A stretch of DNA of 64,000 nucleotides, from positions 254,930 through 318,929 of the forward strand of contig CAZUBI010000001.1 of assembly GCA_964618625.1 (NCBI GenBank), read 5' to 3'. Origin of the DNA: an uncultured Candidatus Saccharibacteria bacterium. GTDB taxonomy: Bacteria; Patescibacteriota; Minisyncoccia; UBA6257. This document shows, piece by piece, positions 1,606 to 51,800 of the stretch. Made by a program: the position numbers and the translations under genes. How positions within the stretch are numbered: the stretch's first letter is position 1; every line of letters begins with the position of its first letter. The notes beneath the pieces were generated by a model that saw only the letters and a list, made by a program, of their open reading frames with translations, did no database searches and was not told where the DNA came from.

Positions 1606-4557
1606 TTATCCTTTTATGACTGCCAAAGGTTTTAATTGGACTATTTTTTTAGCTAACCCGGCTTGATGAACTACTTCTACTACTTCATCAACATCTTTAT
1701 AGGCCAAAGGGGCTTCTTCAGCCAAATCAGAAAGAGATCCTGACTTAACTATTATACCTTTTTTAGCAAGTTGTTGTAAAACTTCTCTACTGCTTGTTTC
1801 TCTTTTTGCTTCATGACGGGACATTGTCCTTCCAGCACCATGACAAACAGTATAAAAAGCTTCTTTTGATTTTTCAGTACCCATTAAAATATAGGAGGCT
1901 GTTCCCATTGTGCCGGGAATTAACACTGGCTGATCGGGAAAAGCCCTTGTTGCCCCTTTACGATGAACGATTAATTTTATCATCTCTCCATCTACTTCAT
2001 GCTCCTCTATTTTTGCAATATTATGAGCCACATCATAAACCAAGTCCATTGATTCTTCTTTTAGTCCTAGAACTTTTTTCCAAGCATTTCTGATCAAATA
2101 AGTAATCATTTGGCGATTGGACCAGGCAAAGTTTGCTGCTGCTCCCATTGCCAAAAAATATTCTTTTCCCTCAGGAGTAGAAAAAGGAATTGCCGCTAAT
2201 TCTCTGTCGGGGAGAGAAATATTATATTTATTCATTGATTGCATAAAAAGACGGATATAATCTGTTGCCACTTGATGACCTAAACCGCGAGAACCAGTGT
2301 GAATAAGAACTACTACTTGTCCTTTTCTAAGACCCAATTCCTCAGCTAATTTTTCTTCATATACCTCGGTTACTTCCTGAACTTCCACGAAATGATTTCC
2401 GGATCCGAGAGTCCCTACTTGATCCCGTCCTCTTTTTTTGGCTAAATCAGATACAAAACAAGGATCTGCTTTTAAACATCCCCCTGACTCACAATGTTCG
2501 ATATCCTTTTCTGTAGCGTATTCTTTTTCTTTTAAATACTCGATCCCTTTTCCTAAAATTCTGTCCATTTCAGCAATATTAAATTTAAACTTTCCCCCTT
2601 TCCCAAGACCAGAAGGAACAGCATGAAAGATTTCTTCTATTAATTTTTCCAGATAGGGCCTGATTTCTTTTTCAGTATGTTTTGATTTTAATAATCTAAC
2701 TCCACAGTTAGAAACTACAAAATTGTCAGCAATAAAGTTATGGTCAGGGTGATTTACAGTAAAATCATAAACAAAATTTTGATAAGGAATTTTTTCAATC
2801 TTTTCAATTATACCCCAAACTAATCCTTTATCGCCATAAGCATATTTTTCTTTATATTCGTTAAATGATAGAAAATTAAAAGCTACTCGGGGAATTCCTC
2901 GTTTTCTTATAATTCCGTGACTATTTTCTTTAAAGAGAGAATGATAGAGAAATTGAAAACTAATATATTCTGAGACATATTTCTTAATTATTTGAGGAGC
3001 CAATTTTTTAAAATCCCCTCTCTTTCGGTACAACTTTCTTATCTCTCGTCTTGCCCTATCTCTCATTTCTACTATTTTTAATTTTTTCTTTAAATAATTA
3101 GCAGCCAAACAGGCTTTTTTATGTTTGCTTTGATTATATTCATAATTTATAACGCTAAAAAATTTAATGAGGTTTTTACTCTCACCCTTTATTTGTAACC
3201 TTAATCCTACGGTCTTTCCATATTTTCCTTTATATTGATACCCTGGTACTTCTTTAATAGAATAAGTCTGAACGCCAAATTCCTTTAATAGTTTCCCTAT
3301 ATCTTTTAAAAATAATTTGGCATTATTTTTAAATTTTTCAGCTTTTTGCATATTTAACTGAAGAGCGCAAAAGTTATATTTATTAAGAGTTGATGGTGAA
3401 GAAAGCTCCGCTCCAAAAAACGAAGCTAAGAATAATCTTTTTTGCCAAAGAGGACAATTGAATATCCAATTAGGAATTCTATATTTTTGATGGGTTTTCA
3501 AACTATAAGGTGTTCCTAAGGCCACTAATAAAATAGCAAAGGCAGAAGAGCCTATTTTAATACTGTACTCTGTTCTTGAAAATTTATAATTTCTATAAAA
3601 AGTAGTTATGGAGTGGTTTCTTTGCCTTGAATATATTTTTGGTGGCTTAAATCCAATTTTAAAAATATCTTTTTGAATTTCTTTCAAATCTTCCGGGTTA
3701 CCATAGAATTGAACCACTCCTTTTTTATTATTTACAAAACTGATTACCCCATCGCCAAAAATATAACCCATTAGTTTTAAGATAGAAGGAAGAGAAGAAG
3801 AATTATAAGTTAAAGGTAATAAATGACGAGATCTTATTTGATTTAGAATTTGAGATGAAGCATTTCCTTTGTTAGTTTTATTAAATTTCTTTAAATATTC
3901 TTTAAATCGCTTCTCGGCTAAAATAATTTTAGAAGAAGGATGCTGATAGTGAATTCCTTTAAATGGATAAGTTAAAACAAAATCATCTTTATTTAAAAAT
4001 CTTGTTTCTTTCATTCCGTTTTCTGTTTGTATGGGATGTTCTCCAGTAGCTTTAATTTTCTCTCCAGAATCTGTAATTATCCGATAAATAGTAGGGTTAT
4101 TATATCTTTGAAAAAAATGTATTAATGGAGAATCAATAACTGCTTTTTTTCTCAAATCTATAGTCTTTACTTCTTCACTTCCCCAAGACGACTCCATTTC
4201 TTTAATAGAGAGGTAGGCTCCATTTTTAAGTAAAATTTTACTCTCTGGAGAGAGGCAATTGATATCATATCCCACTGAACCAGGAGAAATTATGCCATCA
4301 GGTAGTTTTGTGGCAAAAACTCCGCCAATTGGTGCGCCATAGCCTTCATGAATATCTGGCATAGCTAAAGAATATTTTACAATTCCAGGAAGAGTAGTTA
4401 GATTAACTAATTGACTCAAACTTTTGTCTTTCATTACCTCATCTAACATTTTTTCAGTAATATAAATCCTCGCTGGAACCAGCATATCCCTCCTAAAAGA
4501 TTTTGGGATTTCCCAAAGATAATTATTTAATTTTATTAAATCAGATTTATTAAACAT
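1606..4557 (-). CDS. rtcB: RNA-splicing ligase RtcB, interrupted by an intein
   Basis: N-extein MFNKSD...GYDIN and C-extein CGVRLLKS...GSGNHFVE...HGAGR together give ~466 aa of RtcB; a 517-aa insert sits between them. Confidence 0.9.
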   Translation of the reverse strand: MFNKSDLIKLNNYLWEIPKSFRRDMLVPARIYITEKMLDEVMKDKSLSQLVNLTTLPGIVKYSLAMPDIHEGYGAPIGGVFATKLPDGIISPGSVGYDINCLSPESKILLKNGAYLSIKEMESSWGSEEVKTIDLRKKAVIDSPLIHFFQRYNNPTIYRIITDSGEKIKATGEHPIQTENGMKETRFLNKDDFVLTYPFKGIHYQHPSSKIILAEKRFKEYLKKFNKTNKGNASSQILNQIRSRHLLPLTYNSSSLPSILKLMGYIFGDGVISFVNNKKGVVQFYGNPEDLKEIQKDIFKIGFKPPKIYSRQRNHSITTFYRNYKFSRTEYSIKIGSSAFAILLVALGTPYSLKTHQKYRIPNWIFNCPLWQKRLFLASFFGAELSSPSTLNKYNFCALQLNMQKAEKFKNNAKLFLKDIGKLLKEFGVQTYSIKEVPGYQYKGKYGKTVGLRLQIKGESKNLIKFFSVINYEYNQSKHKKACLAANYLKKKLKIVEMRDRARREIRKLYRKRGDFKKLAPQIIKKYVSEYISFQFLYHSLFKENSHGIIRKRGIPRVAFNFLSFNEYKEKYAYGDKGLVWGIIEKIEKIPYQNFVYDFTVNHPDHNFIADNFVVSNCGVRLLKSKHTEKEIRPYLEKLIEEIFHAVPSGLGKGGKFKFNIAEMDRILGKGIEYLKEKEYATEKDIEHCESGGCLKADPCFVSDLAKKRGRDQVGTLGSGNHFVEVQEVTEVYEEKLAEELGLRKGQVVVLIHTGSRGLGHQVATDYIRLFMQSMNKYNISLPDRELAAIPFSTPEGKEYFLAMGAAANFAWSNRQMITYLIRNAWKKVLGLKEESMDLVYDVAHNIAKIEEHEVDGEMIKLIVHRKGATRAFPDQPVLIPGTMGTASYILMGTEKSKEAFYTVCHGAGRTMSRHEAKRETSSREVLQQLAKKGIIVKSGSLSDLAEEAPLAYKDVDEVVEVVHQAGLAKKIVQLKPLAVIKG
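2707..4257 (-). mobile_element. intein with LAGLIDADG homing-endonuclease domain inside rtcB
   Basis: Starts with Cys (CLSPESKILLKNG, block A) and has a TGEHP block B. Two LAGLIDADG-like motifs (LMGYIFGDGVISF, LASFFGAELS). C-terminal blocks VYDFTVNHPDHNFIADNFVVSN are followed by Cys+1 (TGT at 2704..2706, read directly from sequence). Confidence 0.8.
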
Positions 4558-4562
4558 AAAAT

Positions 4563-4976
4563 TTAGATGTCAAAAAGAATTATTGCCTTCCAATCACCAT
4601 TTTTGTCTTGATTGATATTTAATTGATGATAAGTTGCGGCTTTTATTTCTTTAGAAAATTCTTTCACATTTCTGCCTTCTATTATTCCTTTTATAGAATT
4701 ATCTGTTAATTTTTCTATTTTTACCTTGTCAAAAATGCAATTATAAATATCTGATTTTGCTAAAACTTCATTTAAAAAATCCACCAAGAGCGCGTTGATA
4801 TCCAAAGAATGAATTTCTATTTGTTCTTTCTTCAAAACACTCTTTTGAAAAACATTTGGCTCAATAATATAAGTCATTCCTTCCAAAGCCCCTCTAAAAA
4901 TATCTTCTTTGCAAGAGGCTGTTATTTCTAATCTAATATCTGCTGGATGAGATAAAACCTTGTATTTATAACTCAT
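4563..4976 (-). CDS. archease (RtcB activator)
   Basis: 137 aa; HPADIRLEITASCKEDIFRGALEGM N-terminal motif; lies immediately downstream of rtcB. Confidence 0.7.
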   Translation of the reverse strand: MSYKYKVLSHPADIRLEITASCKEDIFRGALEGMTYIIEPNVFQKSVLKKEQIEIHSLDINALLVDFLNEVLAKSDIYNCIFDKVKIEKLTDNSIKGIIEGRNVKEFSKEIKAATYHQLNINQDKNGDWKAIILFDI

Positions 4977-10828: not shown

Positions 10829-13723
10829 ATGAAAGACTTCGCCAAAAAAAGGGAGGAAAAAATTAAAGCTCTTTGGCAAGAATCAAAAGAAAGAGAAGCG
10901 CAAAGGCTGGCTGAAAAACACAATTTTCTTTATGTTGACTTAAGAAAAGCGCCAATTGAAACAAGCGCTCTTTCTATAATCCCAGAAGAAGAAGCAAGAA
11001 AAACTAATATTATTGCTTTCCAAAAAATAGGAAATCAAATTAAATTAGCTGTTTTAGACCCATTTAACGCTGAAACAATAAGAACAATTGAAAAAATCAA
11101 AAAAGAAAGATATAAAGTTGCCGTTTTTGTTGTTACTGAGGAAAGCCTTAATTGGGCATGGAAAAATTATGCTTTTGTCCATGAGCACCAAAAAGAATTA
11201 TCAAATTTTATAGAAATAACTGACACTAAGTCAATTGAATTTTCCGATCTTCATCAAGAACTTTTACCCCTTCCCATAGAAGAAGTCACTTCATTAGTCT
11301 CGCTTATTTTAAAATCAGCTGTTGAAATAGACGCCTCTGACATTCATATTGAACCGCAGGAAGATTACGCTCTTGTTCGTTTTCGTGTGGACGGTGTCTT
11401 ATATGATGTTTCTGAAATAGAAAAAAAGAAACACCGCGGCATTAATCAAAGATTAAAGCTTCTGTCTGGTTTAAAATTAAATATTGAAAATATTTCCCAA
11501 AATGGCAGATTTACTATCCAAAATAATAAAAGTTTTATTGATGTCCGCGCTTCCAGCTTACCAGGTCCTCATGGAGAATTTTTAGTATTCAGGCTCTTAA
11601 ACCCCAAACGAGCCGCTTTTGGTTTAAAAGATTTAGGTATTGACCAAAAAAGTATAGATGTTTTTAATCATTCTTTATCAGCACCAAATGGAATGATTTT
11701 AATCACAGGACCTACAGGTTCAGGAAAAACAACTACTTTATACGCTTTTTTAAAAAAGAAGATTTCCCCAGGAATAAAAATTATCACAATTGAAGACCCA
11801 ATTGAATATCGGCTTGTTGGTGTAAACCAAACTCAGACATCAAAAAAATATGGTTTTGCTAATGGATTAAAATCCATTCTCCGACAAGATCCTGATGTCC
11901 TTATGATTGGCGAAATGAGAGATGAGGAAACAGTAAAAACCGCTATACAGGCTTCTTTAACCGGACATTTGGTCTTTTCTACACTCCATACAAATGAAGC
12001 CAGCGGCACTATTGCCAGACTGGTTGAATTAGGCGCTGACGTCCAAATGCTTCCAAATGCGCTTAAATTAGTTGTGGCGCAAAGATTAATTCGACGCCTT
12101 TGTCCTGATTGTAAAGAAAAATACCAACCAACTCCTGAAATGAAAGAAAGATTAATTGAGGCTTTTAGCATTCTCTCTCCAAAAAGTGGAGTAAAAATAC
12201 CGAAAAATATTCCATGTCTTTATAAATCAAAAGGCTGCGCAAAATGCCATTGGCTGGGATATAAAAGCCAGATTGGAATTTTTGAATACTTTAATATAAG
12301 TCCAAAAATTATTAAAACAATCAAATCCGACGCTGACCAAAATGAAATAAGATCGAAAGCCATTGATGAAGGAATGGTGCCTCTTTTTCATGACGGTCTA
12401 TTGAAAACTATTGAAGGCATTACTTCTTTGGAAGAAGTTATGAGAGTGGCAGGTGATATTTCCTATATCCAGGAATTATATAAAGAATTATTTTCTCAGG
12501 TTTTGACTCGAGGCGTAAAAGTAAGCAGCAAAGAAGAAAAGAAAATAGAAGAATTGCTTCAAAAGAATAAATCAATTTCCCCATTACTAAAAGATAAATC
12601 TTCTGAAAGGCAAATTGCCATTATTTTAGCTACTGCATTAAAATCACGAGCCACAGATGTTCACTTTGAACCAGAAGAAAAAACCAGTGAAATTAGGGAA
12701 AGAATTGACGGAGTGCTCCATAAATTAGTTTCTTTTGATATCAACGAGCATCCTAAATTAATTAATGAATTAAAAGCCCTCAGCGGTTTAAAAACAGAGG
12801 AAACGCAAACAATTCAAGAAGGAAGATTCCGGCTTATTCTTCCTGATGAATCTTTTGACCTCAGGCTTTCAATAATTCCAGGCGGATATGGGGAAAGCGC
12901 CTCCTTAAGAATCTTGGGCGGAGAAGAATCTTTATTAAATTTAGAAAGCTTGGGATTTTTAAAAGAACAGGAAGAAGAAATAGAAAAAGTATTAGAAAAA
13001 AAAGTCGGATTAATTTTAGCTGCCGGGCCTACTTCTTCGGGAAAAACCACAACTCTATTTACAATACTTAAAAAACTTGCCAAGCCAGATGTAAAAGTGA
13101 TTACTGTTGAAGACCCTATTGAATATCGTTTACCTGGAATTATGCAAACTCAAGTTAATGAGGAAAAAGGATATACTTTTTCCAAAGTCCTTCGAAGTTT
13201 GCTTCGCCAAAACCCTAACATTTTCCTAATTGGAGAAATTAGGGACAAAGAAACAGCTAAATTAGTCTGGCAGGCGTCTACAACAGGGCATTTAGTTCTG
13301 TCCACTATTCATACAAATGACGCTTTAGGCGTTTTATCTCGTCTACAGAGTTTAGAAATACCTTCAAAAGAATTGGTGCCTGCTATTAACACTATTGTTG
13401 CGCAACGATTAGTCCGTTGCCTTTGCCCTCATTGTAAAAAAGAAATAAAAATTCCATCAGAAATGTCCAAATTTATCAAACCATCCTTAAAATATTTCCC
13501 AAAATACAAAAAACCGATAAAAATTTACCAAGCTCAAAGTTGCGCCAAATGTAGTTTTACTGGATATAAAGGCCAATCAGGAATATTTGAAATACTTATA
13601 CCGCCTTCAAAAACAAAAGATCTTACAAAAGTAAAATTTTCAAAATTAATTAACAGCGCTGTTATTAAAGTTTTACAGGGAATTACCTCATGGGAGGAAA
13701 TAAAAAGAGTGCTTGGAGTATAA
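10829..13723 (+). CDS. type II/IV secretion (GspE/PilB-family) ATPase with two tandem ATPase cores
   Basis: 964 aa; T2SSE_N-like N-terminus. Two full cores, each with Walker A (GPTGSGKTTTLYAFL / GPTSSGKTTTLFTIL), Asp box, His box (FSTLHTNEA / LSTIHTNDA) and tetracysteine motif (CPDC..CAKC / CPHC..CAKC). Confidence 0.85.
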   Translation: MKDFAKKREEKIKALWQESKEREAQRLAEKHNFLYVDLRKAPIETSALSIIPEEEARKTNIIAFQKIGNQIKLAVLDPFNAETIRTIEKIKKERYKVAVFVVTEESLNWAWKNYAFVHEHQKELSNFIEITDTKSIEFSDLHQELLPLPIEEVTSLVSLILKSAVEIDASDIHIEPQEDYALVRFRVDGVLYDVSEIEKKKHRGINQRLKLLSGLKLNIENISQNGRFTIQNNKSFIDVRASSLPGPHGEFLVFRLLNPKRAAFGLKDLGIDQKSIDVFNHSLSAPNGMILITGPTGSGKTTTLYAFLKKKISPGIKIITIEDPIEYRLVGVNQTQTSKKYGFANGLKSILRQDPDVLMIGEMRDEETVKTAIQASLTGHLVFSTLHTNEASGTIARLVELGADVQMLPNALKLVVAQRLIRRLCPDCKEKYQPTPEMKERLIEAFSILSPKSGVKIPKNIPCLYKSKGCAKCHWLGYKSQIGIFEYFNISPKIIKTIKSDADQNEIRSKAIDEGMVPLFHDGLLKTIEGITSLEEVMRVAGDISYIQELYKELFSQVLTRGVKVSSKEEKKIEELLQKNKSISPLLKDKSSERQIAIILATALKSRATDVHFEPEEKTSEIRERIDGVLHKLVSFDINEHPKLINELKALSGLKTEETQTIQEGRFRLILPDESFDLRLSIIPGGYGESASLRILGGEESLLNLESLGFLKEQEEEIEKVLEKKVGLILAAGPTSSGKTTTLFTILKKLAKPDVKVITVEDPIEYRLPGIMQTQVNEEKGYTFSKVLRSLLRQNPNIFLIGEIRDKETAKLVWQASTTGHLVLSTIHTNDALGVLSRLQSLEIPSKELVPAINTIVAQRLVRCLCPHCKKEIKIPSEMSKFIKPSLKYFPKYKKPIKIYQAQSCAKCSFTGYKGQSGIFEILIPPSKTKDLTKVKFSKLINSAVIKVLQGITSWEEIKRVLGV

Positions 13724-13728
13724 AAAAA

Positions 13729-13877
13729 GGCCCATTAATCTGCAGGCAAATATCCTTCGAAACGAAGACTAAAGATCAACCCGAGGTATACCTCAGACAT
13801 ATAAATATATCCAAGATACCCATCTGCAGAGAACCCCTGACAAGCGTTTGCTTGCTTGCCTACAGATTAATAGACCC
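13729..13877 (-). ncRNA. candidate structured ncRNA (class unknown) in a convergent intergenic region
   Basis: 18-bp terminal helix ggcccattaatctgcagg / cctacagattaatagaccc. Its 3 non-WC positions are G-U only on the minus strand. Internal hairpins cttcgAAAcgaag, gaggTATAcctc, caagcGTTTgcttg. GC-richer than flanks. Confidence 0.4.
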
Positions 13878-13924
13878 TTTATTTTCAATTTGCAATACTA
13901 TTATACTATAGTCCATTAGCTTTG

Positions 13925-16063
13925 TCAACCCCTCACCTGCTTATCCACTTCTAAACTAATTTTCGTGGTATTAATAATTTCCTCCAATGGCATTGGGCTC
14001 CTTCTTTGATGCAAGCAAGAAGCTAAACTTTTTAACTCTTCAAAAAGCCCTTTATTTTGTTGACGCATTTTCATATCAGCTTTCACTCCATATGTTCTTA
14101 ACTTTTTATAATCATCCAGAATAAATACTCTGCCCTCAGAATATAACTCCATATATTCTTTACCAGCTCCGCTATCTCCCTGTGTTGTATAAACTAAATT
14201 AGCTAAAGAGCCGTCTTTAAATTTAATAGTGGAAACAAAATTATCAGTAGTAAGATAAAATGTGTCTTTTGGGGTTATTGCGCAAGCATCAATTTTTTCA
14301 ATTCCAGATTCAGCTAAATAGCAAAAAACATTAAACATATGGCAAGCATTGCCTAAAACTCTTCCTCCGCCTTCGCTGGTATTCACCCAATGGCTTGGCG
14401 CGAGATAAGAATCATTAACTCTATAATTAATTATTATCGGGCTGCGGCGATCCCTAATAGTTTCTTTTATTTTTTGAATGAACGGAGAAAAACGTCGATT
14501 AAATCCAACCGCGACAATTGGGGAATAATCAAAATTTTGTGTTTTTAATATATCCAAAATCTCTTTTAATTCTTCTTTGGTCAAGCATAATGGTTTTTCT
14601 ACAAAAATATTCTTTCCCGCTTTAAGAGTATCAATCACCATTTGAGCATGAAGATTATGCCTTGTACTAATGATAATAAGATTTATTTTGGGATCATTGA
14701 GTAATATTTTATAATCGGTTGTAGCAATACTCGCGTTATAGCGGCTGGCAAAATACTTGGCTTTTACCTGATCATGGGTACAAATTCCGCGAATTCTGTA
14801 AAATTCTCTTAATTTCATTAAATTAGGCAAATGCACGGTCTGGGCAAAACTTCCCACTCCAATAATTCCTAATTCAATTTTTCCTTCAATTTTTTGTGGA
14901 GTGGATAATTCAACAAACTGTTGCGAATCTTTTTCTTTTAAAATAGAGCCTGGATAAGAAAGCAAAACTGCTAATGGTTTTTTTTTGGAATTTAATAATT
15001 TATATGCCAAATCTGCCTGTTTTAAAGAATATTTTCCTTCAATCAAAGAACTAAAATCAATTTTTTTGTTTTTTAATAATTGCAGATAAGCCTGCATATT
15101 GCGATTTTCTGTCCATCTAACATAAGCATAAGGATAATCAATTCCTTTGTTTTCATAATCAGAATCTCCTCTGCCAGGGCCATAAGAAGTAGATATGCGC
15201 AATTCAATTTCCTTTTGATACCAAGGCAACCTATTAATTTTCAAACCAATATCCCCTACGACAACGACTTTCCCCTTTTTTCTTGTTGTTAATAACGCCT
15301 GATTAATAATTTCATCGTCTGAGGGATTAGCAGCAGTAATAATAGTCGCGTCTGCTCCTTGTGAATTAGTTAAATAATTAATTTTATTTAAAAGATTTTT
15401 AGTAGTAGGAGAAAAAATATTTGTTAATCCATTTTCTTTGGCTTTTTTTATTCTTTCTTTGGAAAGCTCAATACCAATCACCTTTATCCCGCTTGCCAAA
15501 AGAATCTGCGCAGTTAATTGGCCTATTAATCCTAACCCAACAACTACAGCACTTTCTCCTACGCGCAAATCAGCCTGCCTGACTCCTTGAAGAGCAATTG
15601 CGCCAACTGTGGCAGAACAAGCATCTTCAAAAGAAACTCCATTAGGAACTTTTACTGTTAAATTCCTTGGAACAGCTATAAATTCAGCATGGGAGGCAAT
15701 ATTTGCTCCTGCGCAAGCAACAATATCCCCTCTTTTAATATCAATTATATCCTTTCCGACTTTCATAACACGGCCGCAACAACTATATCCAGGAGTTACT
15801 CCCGCTTGAAGCATACCAGTTACTATTTTATAAGCATTGGAAAACCCCTGCTCTTTCACAAGCTTAATGCCTTTAGCTAATTTAGTTGGATGTTTTAAAA
15901 CCTTTAAAGGCAAAGGTTGCCCAGAAAAATTTAAACTTGATAATTCTGTGCCCGAAGAAATTAAAGAAAATAGATTTTCCACTAAAATCTGGCCTGCTCC
16001 GCAAGCCGGCGTTGGAACCTCTTCTACAACAACTTTTCCTTGTTTAAAAACTAATTGTTTCAT
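13925..16063 (-). CDS. bi-domain oxidoreductase (zinc-ADH/MDR N-terminal + Gfo/Idh/MocA C-terminal)
   Basis: 712 aa. N-terminal GroES-like/MDR with Rossmann GLGLIGQ. C-terminal second Rossmann GIIGVGSFAQTVHLPNL with Gfo/Idh/MocA-like fold. Confidence 0.7.
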   Translation of the reverse strand: MKQLVFKQGKVVVEEVPTPACGAGQILVENLFSLISSGTELSSLNFSGQPLPLKVLKHPTKLAKGIKLVKEQGFSNAYKIVTGMLQAGVTPGYSCCGRVMKVGKDIIDIKRGDIVACAGANIASHAEFIAVPRNLTVKVPNGVSFEDACSATVGAIALQGVRQADLRVGESAVVVGLGLIGQLTAQILLASGIKVIGIELSKERIKKAKENGLTNIFSPTTKNLLNKINYLTNSQGADATIITAANPSDDEIINQALLTTRKKGKVVVVGDIGLKINRLPWYQKEIELRISTSYGPGRGDSDYENKGIDYPYAYVRWTENRNMQAYLQLLKNKKIDFSSLIEGKYSLKQADLAYKLLNSKKKPLAVLLSYPGSILKEKDSQQFVELSTPQKIEGKIELGIIGVGSFAQTVHLPNLMKLREFYRIRGICTHDQVKAKYFASRYNASIATTDYKILLNDPKINLIIISTRHNLHAQMVIDTLKAGKNIFVEKPLCLTKEELKEILDILKTQNFDYSPIVAVGFNRRFSPFIQKIKETIRDRRSPIIINYRVNDSYLAPSHWVNTSEGGGRVLGNACHMFNVFCYLAESGIEKIDACAITPKDTFYLTTDNFVSTIKFKDGSLANLVYTTQGDSGAGKEYMELYSEGRVFILDDYKKLRTYGVKADMKMRQQNKGLFEELKSLASCLHQRRSPMPLEEIINTTKISLEVDKQVRG

Positions 16064-40180: not shown

Positions 40181-40282
40181 AATAGATACTCGTCTTATAA
40201 AAATTAATTCTAAGAATTATTATAAGATAGAAAAAAATAATGTCAATATCGCTTGACAAGATAGGGATTTAGTGTAGAATAA

Positions 40283-49615: not shown

Positions 49616-49736
49616 ATACTTTAATTATACCATAAAAAAAAACTACCCTTGCCCAAAGGCAGGAGTAGTGCTTATAGTACTTTCATTATAGTCCTATTAA
49701 TTATTTTGTCAAGAGGATAATTGTGTATAAATTTTA

Positions 49737-50935: not shown

Positions 50936-50962
50936 GATTGAACTCTAGTTTCTCTTAAGCTA

Positions 50963-50993
50963 TTCACCAAAAAATCGCCTCTTTGACGATTCT
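50963..50993. repeat. repeated hairpin, copy 6 (degenerate)
   Basis: tcaccaaaaaatcgcctctttgacgattct. Confidence 0.7.
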
Positions 50994-50999
50994 AATTTG

Positions 51000-51071
51000 C
51001 TGCGGGACTTGGACTCGAACCAAGATCTTCTCCTCCAAGGGGAGACGTGACTACCATTGCACCATCCCGCA
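51000..51071 (-). tRNA. tRNA, probably Gln(TTG); unusual C at position 33
   Basis: hand-folded cloverleaf: acceptor TGCGGGA/TCCCGCA, T-arm CTTGG-TTCGAGT-CCAAG, anticodon arm TCTCC-CCTTGGA-GGAGA. Confidence 0.5.
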
Positions 51072-51800
51072 ATTTTTATAAATACCTTCAATCCATCCTT
51101 GAATCTTTCGATTCAAATTTATGCTTTTCTTCACAGAAATCCTAATTAATCCAAAATAATCTTTGCCAACATTTTTCCGATGAGTATTAATTTTGTTCTT
51201 TTTCCAAATTATTTTTTGAAAATCTTTTATAGGAAAACCTGTAGCTCTAGACCAATATTGTTGTACTTTTTTCAATTTATGCCGAGCCGTTACATGAAGA
51301 TAAATACGAACATTAATTTCTGATTTCGGTATTTTACAAATTTCATAAAGCCATTCTAAAAATATCTTTATTAAATATGGATCTGAATTTCCTAATTGAA
51401 CTAAACTTCCATTCAATTTTTCTTTACTGCCTTCCCCCCAATACAAAGCTGTACCAATCATCCATAAATCTCTTTCGCTAATATTCTTTATTTCATTTAT
51501 CGCTTCTTTTTTTATTTTCTTTGTAATAATCCTTTTTTGGTTTTTTCTTGCAAGGGCTCCGCGAAGCGCAGCTGATAATTTCTTTTTTGTTAATCTCTGT
51601 TTTTGTCTTTTACTTAACCCAACGCTTCTCAACCATAAAGACAATGTTGATTTGGCAACAGGAACTTTTTCTAATATTTCGGAATAAGAAAAGCCTCTCT
51701 TACGAAGCTTAATAGCTAATTCCTTTTCTTTATATTTTAATATCATCTGAACCACTATTAGTATTACTCTAATTATACTATCATGGTTCGATATTGTCAA
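51051..51800 (-). CDS. HTH + LAGLIDADG-like motif protein (putative free-standing homing-endonuclease-like), paralog of 57974..58603
   Basis: N-terminal HTH (ELAIKLRKRGFSYSEILEKV); ALYWGEGSK resembles LAGLIDADG (..GfiDGEGs); 3' end overlaps the tRNA 5' end by ~20 nt. Confidence 0.45.
   Translation of the reverse strand: MTISNHDSIIRVILIVVQMILKYKEKELAIKLRKRGFSYSEILEKVPVAKSTLSLWLRSVGLSKRQKQRLTKKKLSAALRGALARKNQKRIITKKIKKEAINEIKNISERDLWMIGTALYWGEGSKEKLNGSLVQLGNSDPYLIKIFLEWLYEICKIPKSEINVRIYLHVTARHKLKKVQQYWSRATGFPIKDFQKIIWKKNKINTHRKNVGKDYFGLIRISVKKSINLNRKIQGWIEGIYKNCGMVQW

Follow-up and report, generated by a model that had tools for sequence, protein, structure and literature searches.

Between the 3′ ends of two convergent genes, the stretch of DNA analyzed here (64,000 nucleotides in all, referred to below as the window) carries a long inverted repeat, which raises the question of whether it is a terminator, a DNA palindrome or the gene of a structured RNA, and, in the last case, to which class the RNA belongs and what it does. 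The initial annotation of the window had taken it for a structured RNA transcribed from the minus strand, with no class assigned, and this core reading was supported by the promoter, the conservation, the covariation and the model scores described below. We show that the element is a genuine RNA gene: it is present in single copy, has its own promoter and encodes a structured RNA whose family extends across deeply diverged Paceibacteria-type lineages. The RNA family is not catalogued in Rfam and appears to be new.

The RNA gene and its signals

The convergent neighbors of the element are a gene encoding a PilB/GspE-type ATPase on the plus strand (10829-13723; 964 aa, with an MshEN and two T2SSE domains) and a gene encoding a bi-domain oxidoreductase on the minus strand (13925-16063; 712 aa), the latter being the upstream neighbor of the RNA gene. 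The position between convergent genes given by the initial annotation therefore held, and so did its description of a GC-richer region, but the rise is modest (GC of 0.41 versus 0.28-0.37 nearby). An inverted-repeat pattern search of the 64-kb window matched only the two arms of the closing helix of the element, P1, and the covariance model of the RNA gave one hit in the window, at 13723-13883 with 159 bits.

A promoter scan identified a sigma-70 promoter with the full consensus score of 12/12 on the minus strand (TTGACA-17-TATAAT, 13928 to 13900). Its −35 hexamer TTGACA (13923..13928) shares bases with the TGA that ends the oxidoreductase gene upstream, and its −10 hexamer TATAAT occupies 13900..13905. 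Perfect TTGACA-N16-18-TATAAT sites were observed four times in the window against 0.08 expected, and therefore the source organism does use the consensus. The three other perfect promoters (TTGACA-N16/17-TATAAT) are all on the minus strand, at 40219-40246, 49685-49712 and 51772-51800; the last of them sits at the very start of a 249-codon ORF beginning with TTG and may drive something other than that ORF.

The predicted transcript of ~170 nt spans 13722..13893 on the minus strand, with a start placed ~7 nt past the −10 hexamer and an end at a U-tract, both ends being inferred from sequence alone. This U7 tract follows P1 at 13722..13728 on the minus strand, was read as a terminator tail, and touches the TAA stop codon of the T2SSE ATPase gene (13721-13723, plus strand). 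A terminator scan flagged 13747-13730 with the tail CTTTTTTTAT, while the full P1 has 25 bp. With a stable G+C-containing helix and a U-tract directly behind it, the element qualifies by sequence as an intrinsic terminator, and termination itself remains an inference. A residues sit at the 5′ base of P1, and in the window the pilB-type ATPase gene has no terminator of its own ahead of the RNA gene. The only ORF that overlaps the RNA, of 73 codons, was considered as a coding alternative; since indels of many lengths (1, 4, 6, 8 and 12-14 nt) occur inside it, a coding role was ruled out.

The RNA folds into a four-way junction

The minus strand of the element folds with −67.8 kcal/mol (z = −8.43), which none of 200 shuffled sequences equaled, and the plus strand folds with −40.3 kcal/mol (z = −5.34). 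Folding is far beyond chance, and strand-asymmetric. RNAalifold and the covariance model agreed on a four-way junction of the helices P1 to P4, with 55 pairs.

On the minus strand P1 closes the structure with 25 continuous pairs, 13856-13880 with 13725-13749, four of which are G·U. The inner half of the 5′ strand (13856..13880, minus strand), UAAUCUGURGGCAA, is almost invariant, and the 3′ strand (13725..13749, minus strand) reads UUGCCURYAGAUUA..., its final bases being the start of the U-tract. P2 (13840..13855, minus strand) is a hairpin with a 6-bp stem, GCAAGC/GCUUGU, that is joined to P1 without a linker; its loop has 4 nt here and up to ~30 nt in homologues, and a linker of 1-2 nt leads on to P3. 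The P3 arm (13772..13838, minus strand) is long and irregular, with 4 + 2 + 13 or more pairs split by internal loops. Its core, P3c (13783..13824, minus strand), reads GAUGGGUAUYYUGG ... CUGRRRUAUACCUC. One strand of the core carries a bulged U and the other a bulged A, and three G·U pairs are fixed; this distal segment is conserved as GAUGGGUAU...UGG / CUG...UAUACCUC, while its apical loop varies among homologues (UUUA, UUCG and UCCG). P4 (13754..13768, minus strand) is a hairpin with a 5-bp stem, variable in sequence and loop. A mutual-information scan revealed two extra covarying pairs, both nested inside P3, and gave neither a pseudoknot nor a contact between loops. P3 lacks the motifs that define a K-turn and P4 those of a T-loop, and both were set aside.

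Not all of the structural claims in the initial annotation were borne out by this model. The inverted repeat is where it had been placed, and is longer than the 18 bp claimed. Three of the four G·U pairs in P1 are the positions that had been noted as C-A on the plus strand but G-U on the minus strand; the conclusion drawn from them, a minus-strand RNA, held, and the strand was confirmed by the G·U excess in the family. The proposed hairpins caagc/gcttg and cttcg/cgaag correspond to P2 and P4, respectively. The third proposed hairpin, gagg-TATA-cctc, is present in the sequence but failed, with two of its four pairs broken in 16/42 and 29/42 homologues; its bases belong to the 3′ strand of P3. 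The statement that CTGCAG occurs three times was partly right: two copies are exact, and the third is CTACAG in the other arm. Most close relatives could form the suggested alternative pairing through these repeats, but it does not covary and is unsupported.

Homologues found come from Patescibacteria

The source organism was judged to be a Patescibacteria/CPR bacterium by the names that its close protein homologues and the matching genomes carry. Every homologue recovered is likewise from Patescibacteria; they came from 19 species genomes, 32 metagenome contigs and 8 distinct syntenic loci. The exact-pattern scan gave one match per genome in the 19 species genomes, all of which carry Patescibacteria-type names, and no match in viral contigs. 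The pattern scan of metagenomes yielded 33 contigs, 32 of which were confirmed by the covariance model, itself built from nine sequences; the remaining hit (L047) was rejected as a chance match in what appeared by eye to be coding sequence, without a model hit. When ever more distant homologues of the oxidoreductase were followed, an RNA homologue with its promoter was found at 9/9 loci (L004-L012, of which L007 and L008 are the same sequence). In three contigs from the same strain, the RNA region is identical.

Several loci (L015, L017, L023, L026, L029 and L031) are labelled "uncultured Candidatus Saccharibacteria" while near-identical loci are labelled Paceibacterota, and these labels look unreliable. 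In L011, the Wzy-TPR and oxidoreductase genes are separated by an inserted gene (2104-2469) of the Avd / 23S-rRNA-IVP family, a protein family associated with diversity-generating retroelements.

Covariation supports the fold and fixes the strand

Across 40 distinct sequences, 97.3% of all cells in the paired columns can pair, and 28 of the 55 pairs show compensatory double changes. None of 500 shuffles reached any of the observed measures of pairing or covariation, and controls with slid partners were only 39-55% paired. By helix, the same 40 sequences gave 97.9% paired with double changes in 14/25 pairs for P1, 99.6% with double changes in 4/6 pairs for P2, and 92% with double changes in 4/5 pairs for P4. 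The P3 arm is 99% paired in homologues, and 8 of the 13 pairs of P3c never vary in the 40 sequences.

Over the 55 pairs, G·U cells outnumber A·C cells by 443 to 16; the functional strand is therefore fixed, and a DNA palindrome is excluded. The covariance model agrees with this strand in every locus, with 80-161 bits on the promoter strand versus 18-57 on the other. The initial annotation would have been refuted by a lack of conservation or covariation in relatives, or by the motif being a cluster of protein-binding DNA palindromes. Neither applies: conservation and covariation are both present, and the element is single copy and strand-asymmetric.

Conserved positions cluster in helices and not in loops, namely in inner P1, the P2 stem and distal P3, and the nucleotides of the junction and loops are poorly conserved across the family. 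The helical segments hardly differ between lineages that share only ~42% identity in PilB. Most homologues were gathered with patterns taken from the RNA itself, which inflated the apparent invariance of P3c and inner P1. The P3c motif is also kept in three loci not chosen by any RNA pattern (L065-L067, described below), but these loci only partly relieve the selection bias on P3c and inner P1.

The promoter is conserved together with the RNA

Upstream sequence was available at 48 loci. At 47 of them TTGACA is exact, the spacer has 16 or 17 nt and the −10 hexamer has at least 4/6 matches; the promoter is perfect (12/12) in 33 of the 48. The distance from the −10 hexamer to the start of the model, which lies 3 nt ahead of P1, ranges from 3 to 42 nt among homologues, giving a variable 5′ leader, and a U-run follows P1 in nearly all of them. 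The loci L065-L067 keep TTGACA exactly, each with a TTGACA-17-TAGAAT or TAATAT promoter. In this lineage, where the RNA is linked to ruvB, an extra small hairpin lies on the minus strand between the promoter and P1 (L065 4858-4900, L066 4846-4880 and L067 4878-4920) and the RNA reaches ~200 nt; P4 is longer in these loci as well.

The RNA gene lies against the 3′ end of pilB

At 38 of the ~41 loci with room, the 3′ end of the RNA convergently abuts or overlaps the 3′ end of a pilB-type gene, with a spacing of mostly −19 to +22 nt; at two further loci of the ~41 the RNA lies on the pilB strand. The upstream neighbor changes with lineage and is an oxidoreductase, Wzy-TPR, H+-PPase or ruvB gene. 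Besides pilB, no gene was found to co-localize with the RNA in the homologous loci. In L004 and L067 the stop codon of pilB falls inside P1, as inferred from the coordinates of the gene ends and the RNA matches.

The linkage was also examined in a blind test, for which three PilB homologues from Yanofskybacteria and other Parcubacteria (L065-L067), sharing 53-61% identity with the L017 protein, were picked by no criterion other than protein similarity. In each locus pilB is separated from ruvB by a gap of 226-255 nt, and all three gaps hold the RNA at the site and in the orientation predicted, opposite to the pilB strand, with 66-94 bits and E values of 6e-18 to 3e-26 in the unfiltered model.

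The arrangement has exceptions in which the RNA persists. The whole RNA gene and its promoter are inverted in L010, L020 and L039, where they lie intact on the same strand as pilB; in L010 the inverted gene (4627-4791) occupies the same intergenic space, co-directional with pilB and convergent with the oxidoreductase gene. In L012 and L021 pilB is not adjacent, and the RNA, again with its promoter intact, lies between the H+-PPase gene and rpsB. Complementarity between the RNA and the 5′ region of pilB did not exceed that of shuffled controls by an unrestricted duplex method, which is crude.

In the ATPase of the window (10829-13723, plus strand), two T2SSE domains are fused in tandem. The two halves are still alike in DNA (repeat families D5 and D10, 72-74% identity), and short-read contigs of the same strain break inside this gene. 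More distant lineages have an ordinary single-domain PilB of ~560 aa.

Comparison with known RNA families

At the gathering score, Rfam 15 found only tRNAs elsewhere in the whole window and nothing on the RNA, and it likewise found nothing on the RNA itself at 15 homologous loci. With E values up to 10, nothing fell on the RNA in stretches of 601 nt and 186 nt, the 601-nt stretch giving four chance hits to unrelated families (E 3.9-6.3). The Rfam check that the initial annotation had recommended thus returned no match to the RNA. Nothing relevant on structured RNAs of CPR/Patescibacteria, on 6S RNA in CPR or on pilB-linked small RNAs was found in the literature searched.

The initial annotation had suggested a 6S-like RNA, and 6S RNA (RF00013 and variants such as 6S-Flavo) is the closest comparison. 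Both are stand-alone, single-copy RNAs of ~170-200 nt with a strong sigma-70 promoter, and both have a terminal stem formed by the two ends, a non-helical center and a long irregular apical arm. The 6S criterion of size and gene type, a stand-alone gene of ~150-200 nt with a housekeeping promoter, is met by the new RNA. 6S RNAs are defined by a largely unstructured central bubble, the open 5′ strand of which can serve as a template, and by arms that are broken by small loops or bulges (PMC8876501); functionally, they bind the RNA polymerase holoenzyme and template product RNAs. In contrast, the new RNA has no open central bubble, its covarying P2 and P4 forming a tight four-way junction, and its P1 is an uninterrupted 25 bp in all lineages, while P3 is interrupted. 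Moreover, there is no covariance-model match, and the sequence of the new RNA is strongly conserved within helices. The suggestion thus failed two defining 6S features and every Rfam model: the RNA is not a 6S member, although 6S is nearest to it in size, gene organization and layout, and a 6S-like job is not excluded.

In bacterial Y RNAs of the YrlA type, a long stem of the 5′ and 3′ ends leads to a multi-helix junction. The new RNA resembles them in such a stem and junction and is likewise presumed to be protein-bound, and the window encodes, ~9 kb from the RNA gene, an intein-interrupted RtcB RNA ligase (983 aa) directly followed by archease (1606-4976, minus strand), an RNA-repair pair for which no link to the RNA has been shown. 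Unlike Y RNA, the new RNA has no Rfam match, no T-loop motif in P4, whose loop is variable, and no bulged Ro-binding helix in P1. The annotated neighbors of the RNA are pilB, ruvB, oxidoreductase, Wzy and H+-PPase genes, and, without a dedicated search, no rsr/TROVE gene turned up among the flanking proteins with Pfam annotation.

Other classes were set aside. Domain IV of SRP RNA (4.5S) carries an apical GNRA-type tetraloop with conserved symmetric and asymmetric loops; there was no Rfam SRP hit, and the apical loops UUUA/UUCG/UCCG vary between members. 5S rRNA, tmRNA and RNase P RNA were considered and set aside, their defining motifs or neighbors being absent. For a retron RNA, no reverse transcriptase gene is present among the Pfam-annotated neighbors, and for a TnpB/IscB/IS110 guide RNA, no such gene is adjacent. 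Most of the 224 motifs reported in PMC5737381 are cis-regulatory leaders. The criterion for a riboswitch or leader, a place upstream of and on the same strand as the controlled gene, is not met here: the downstream gene is convergent in 38/~41 loci and the U-tract ends the element. The new RNA resembles orphan noncoding RNA classes such as raiA, which are also defined by covariation, restricted to lineages, of unknown function and not cis-regulatory leaders; it differs from them in sequence and fold, in its CPR hosts, in its unusually conserved consensus promoter and in its fixed place against pilB. It also shares with bidirectional intrinsic terminators the order of A-tract, stable helix and U-tract between convergent units that lack another terminator. 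Here, however, the place of the "loop" is taken by a three-arm RNA of ~105 nt, which is conserved, covaries and has a promoter of its own, and the helix is optimized for one strand.

Proposed role of the RNA

We slightly favor, at a probability of roughly 0.55, a reading in which the RNA acts in trans while bound to protein, and in which P1 with its U-tract also serves as a bidirectional terminator shared with pilB. The function is unproven, and expression, transcript ends and termination are all inferred from sequence alone. The RNA would be made in large amounts, an abundance that is likewise only inferred, and P1 with the U-tract would end its own transcription. The same helix on the other strand, which still folds with −40 kcal/mol and is then followed by UUUAUUUU, would end the pilB transcript. 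The simplest reason for the locked adjacency of the RNA and pilB, also an inference, is that there is no spacer between the two 3′ ends and hence no neutral breakpoint; under the shared-terminator view, the pair would stay together while the other flank keeps changing. The mature RNA would work in trans, either as the RNA component of a ribonucleoprotein or by serving as a decoy for a protein, and its sequence-invariant helical segments (inner P1/P2 and P3c), rather than single-stranded seed regions, would be what is recognized. A main role in trans is the most likely one, given that the RNA persists after inversion and relocation; and since its invariant parts are helices in which bulges and wobble pairs are fixed, the RNA most likely acts through recognition by a protein.

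Several points stand against this reading. No partner protein has been identified; RNase III would be expected to cleave a perfect 25-bp helix, so that the mature form may differ from the primary transcript; and the near-universal contact with pilB could reflect a functional tie and not a locked terminator.

Several rival explanations were weighed. A counterpart of 6S RNA would bind the sigma-70 RNA polymerase holoenzyme as a mimic of an open promoter, with P3 as the upstream duplex carrying a "−35-like" invariant segment, P2 and P4 as the strands of the "central bubble" and P1 as the downstream duplex. In favor of this are the ~170-nt length, the rod-plus-center layout, the single copy, the very strong housekeeping-type promoter and the RNA's own terminator, as well as a center closed on the P1 side by invariant G-C pairs and the hairpin that B. 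subtilis 6S-1 likewise has in its 3′ bubble strand (PMC8876501). That no 6S RNA is annotated in the window or the fetched loci is weak support, as it rests on 64 kb and 15 loci (143 kb in all) at the gathering threshold. Against it, no Rfam 6S-type model matched the 186-nt stretch alone, even with E relaxed to 10; in place of a 5′ "bubble strand" there is a covarying hairpin that adjoins P1 without a linker, leaving no open template strand; P1 has 25 uninterrupted pairs, whereas 6S arms are broken by loops or bulges; and sequence conservation is far above the usual 6S level between lineages so distant. Without binding data, we consider this explanation unlikely. Also unlikely is a cis-antisense regulator, which would set pilB expression through duplex formation, RNase III cleavage or polymerase collision, on the basis that the pilB mRNA has no terminator before the RNA gene and its 3′ end would be fully complementary to an abundant RNA. 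This fits the convergent 3′ ends that abut or overlap in 38/~41 loci and in 3/3 blind loci, the pilB stop codons placed within P1 by coordinates in L004 and L067, and the plus strand, which can still form a long helix followed by UUUAUUUU. However, the RNA and its promoter are kept on the pilB strand in L010, L020 and L039 and away from pilB in L012 and L021; a plain antisense RNA has no need of a four-way junction, 28 covarying pairs and fixed G·U pairs and bulges that are specific to one strand; and complementarity to the 5′ region of pilB is not above shuffled controls.

A sensor RNA, riboswitch-like or responsive to a protein, would use P1 as a conditional terminator, the failure of which would let antisense transcription read on into pilB. 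P1 with the U-tract is indeed the sole terminator, with antisense pilB directly downstream, and in most members an internal CUGCAGAU overlapping P3c offers a pairing partner for the P1 5′ strand; this alternative helix has 88.7% of cells paired, versus 30-48% in slid controls. Yet it shows no covariation and shrinks to 4 bp (AUCU/AGAU) in distant members, and with 25 bp against at most 8 bp and a free toehold, P1 should always win. The junction and loop nucleotides, the usual sites of ligand pockets, are poorly conserved, and some lineages have lost the arrangement while the RNA shows no decay, which together leave the sensor very improbable. The explanation that the element is merely an elaborate bidirectional terminator, or a DNA element such as a MITE or a protein-binding palindrome, draws on the 25-bp inverted arms ~105 bp apart, the convergent genes and the A- and U-tracts on either side. 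It can be all but dismissed in view of the element's own conserved consensus promoter, its covarying internal arms and its one copy per genome, where a MITE would have many. In addition, no flanking direct repeat is visible by eye, no formal search having been made, and the mismatches are nearly all G·U on one strand (443 vs 16), unlike a DNA palindrome, for which strand-symmetric decay is the criterion.

Beyond the preferred reading of a trans-acting, protein-bound RNA, a bolder one is possible, in which the RNA is a core, housekeeping-level component of Paceibacteria/Parcubacteria, either their long-missing functional equivalent of 6S RNA, built on a four-way junction, or the RNA subunit of an unknown ribonucleoprotein that is specific to this ultra-small, symbiotic lineage, and maybe tied to the type IV pilus ATPase, beside which it would have stayed since the lineages split. 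Very slow change and a perfect consensus promoter are as expected of a central cellular component. CPR/Patescibacteria, with their tiny genomes, make up a very large and mostly uncultured share of bacterial diversity, and no description of a lineage-specific RNA of this kind from them was found in the full-text literature searched. The covariance model, the structure and the fixed genomic address by pilB supply a concrete target for metatranscriptomics, for pull-downs, for work in the few cultivable CPR systems and for better annotation of CPR genomes. Should the RNA bind RNA polymerase or be linked to the pilus, it would offer a new view of regulation in episymbiotic bacteria.

A repeated terminator-like hairpin elsewhere in the window

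Apart from the RNA gene, the window holds one identical terminator-like hairpin in six copies between 47020 and 50989, reading TCGCC-AAAGA-GGCGA followed by U6 on the minus strand. The copies are ~600-1000 nt apart; five of them come after unrelated, consecutive ORFs of the minus strand, and the sixth (50947-50989) sits immediately downstream of a tRNA at 51000-51071.
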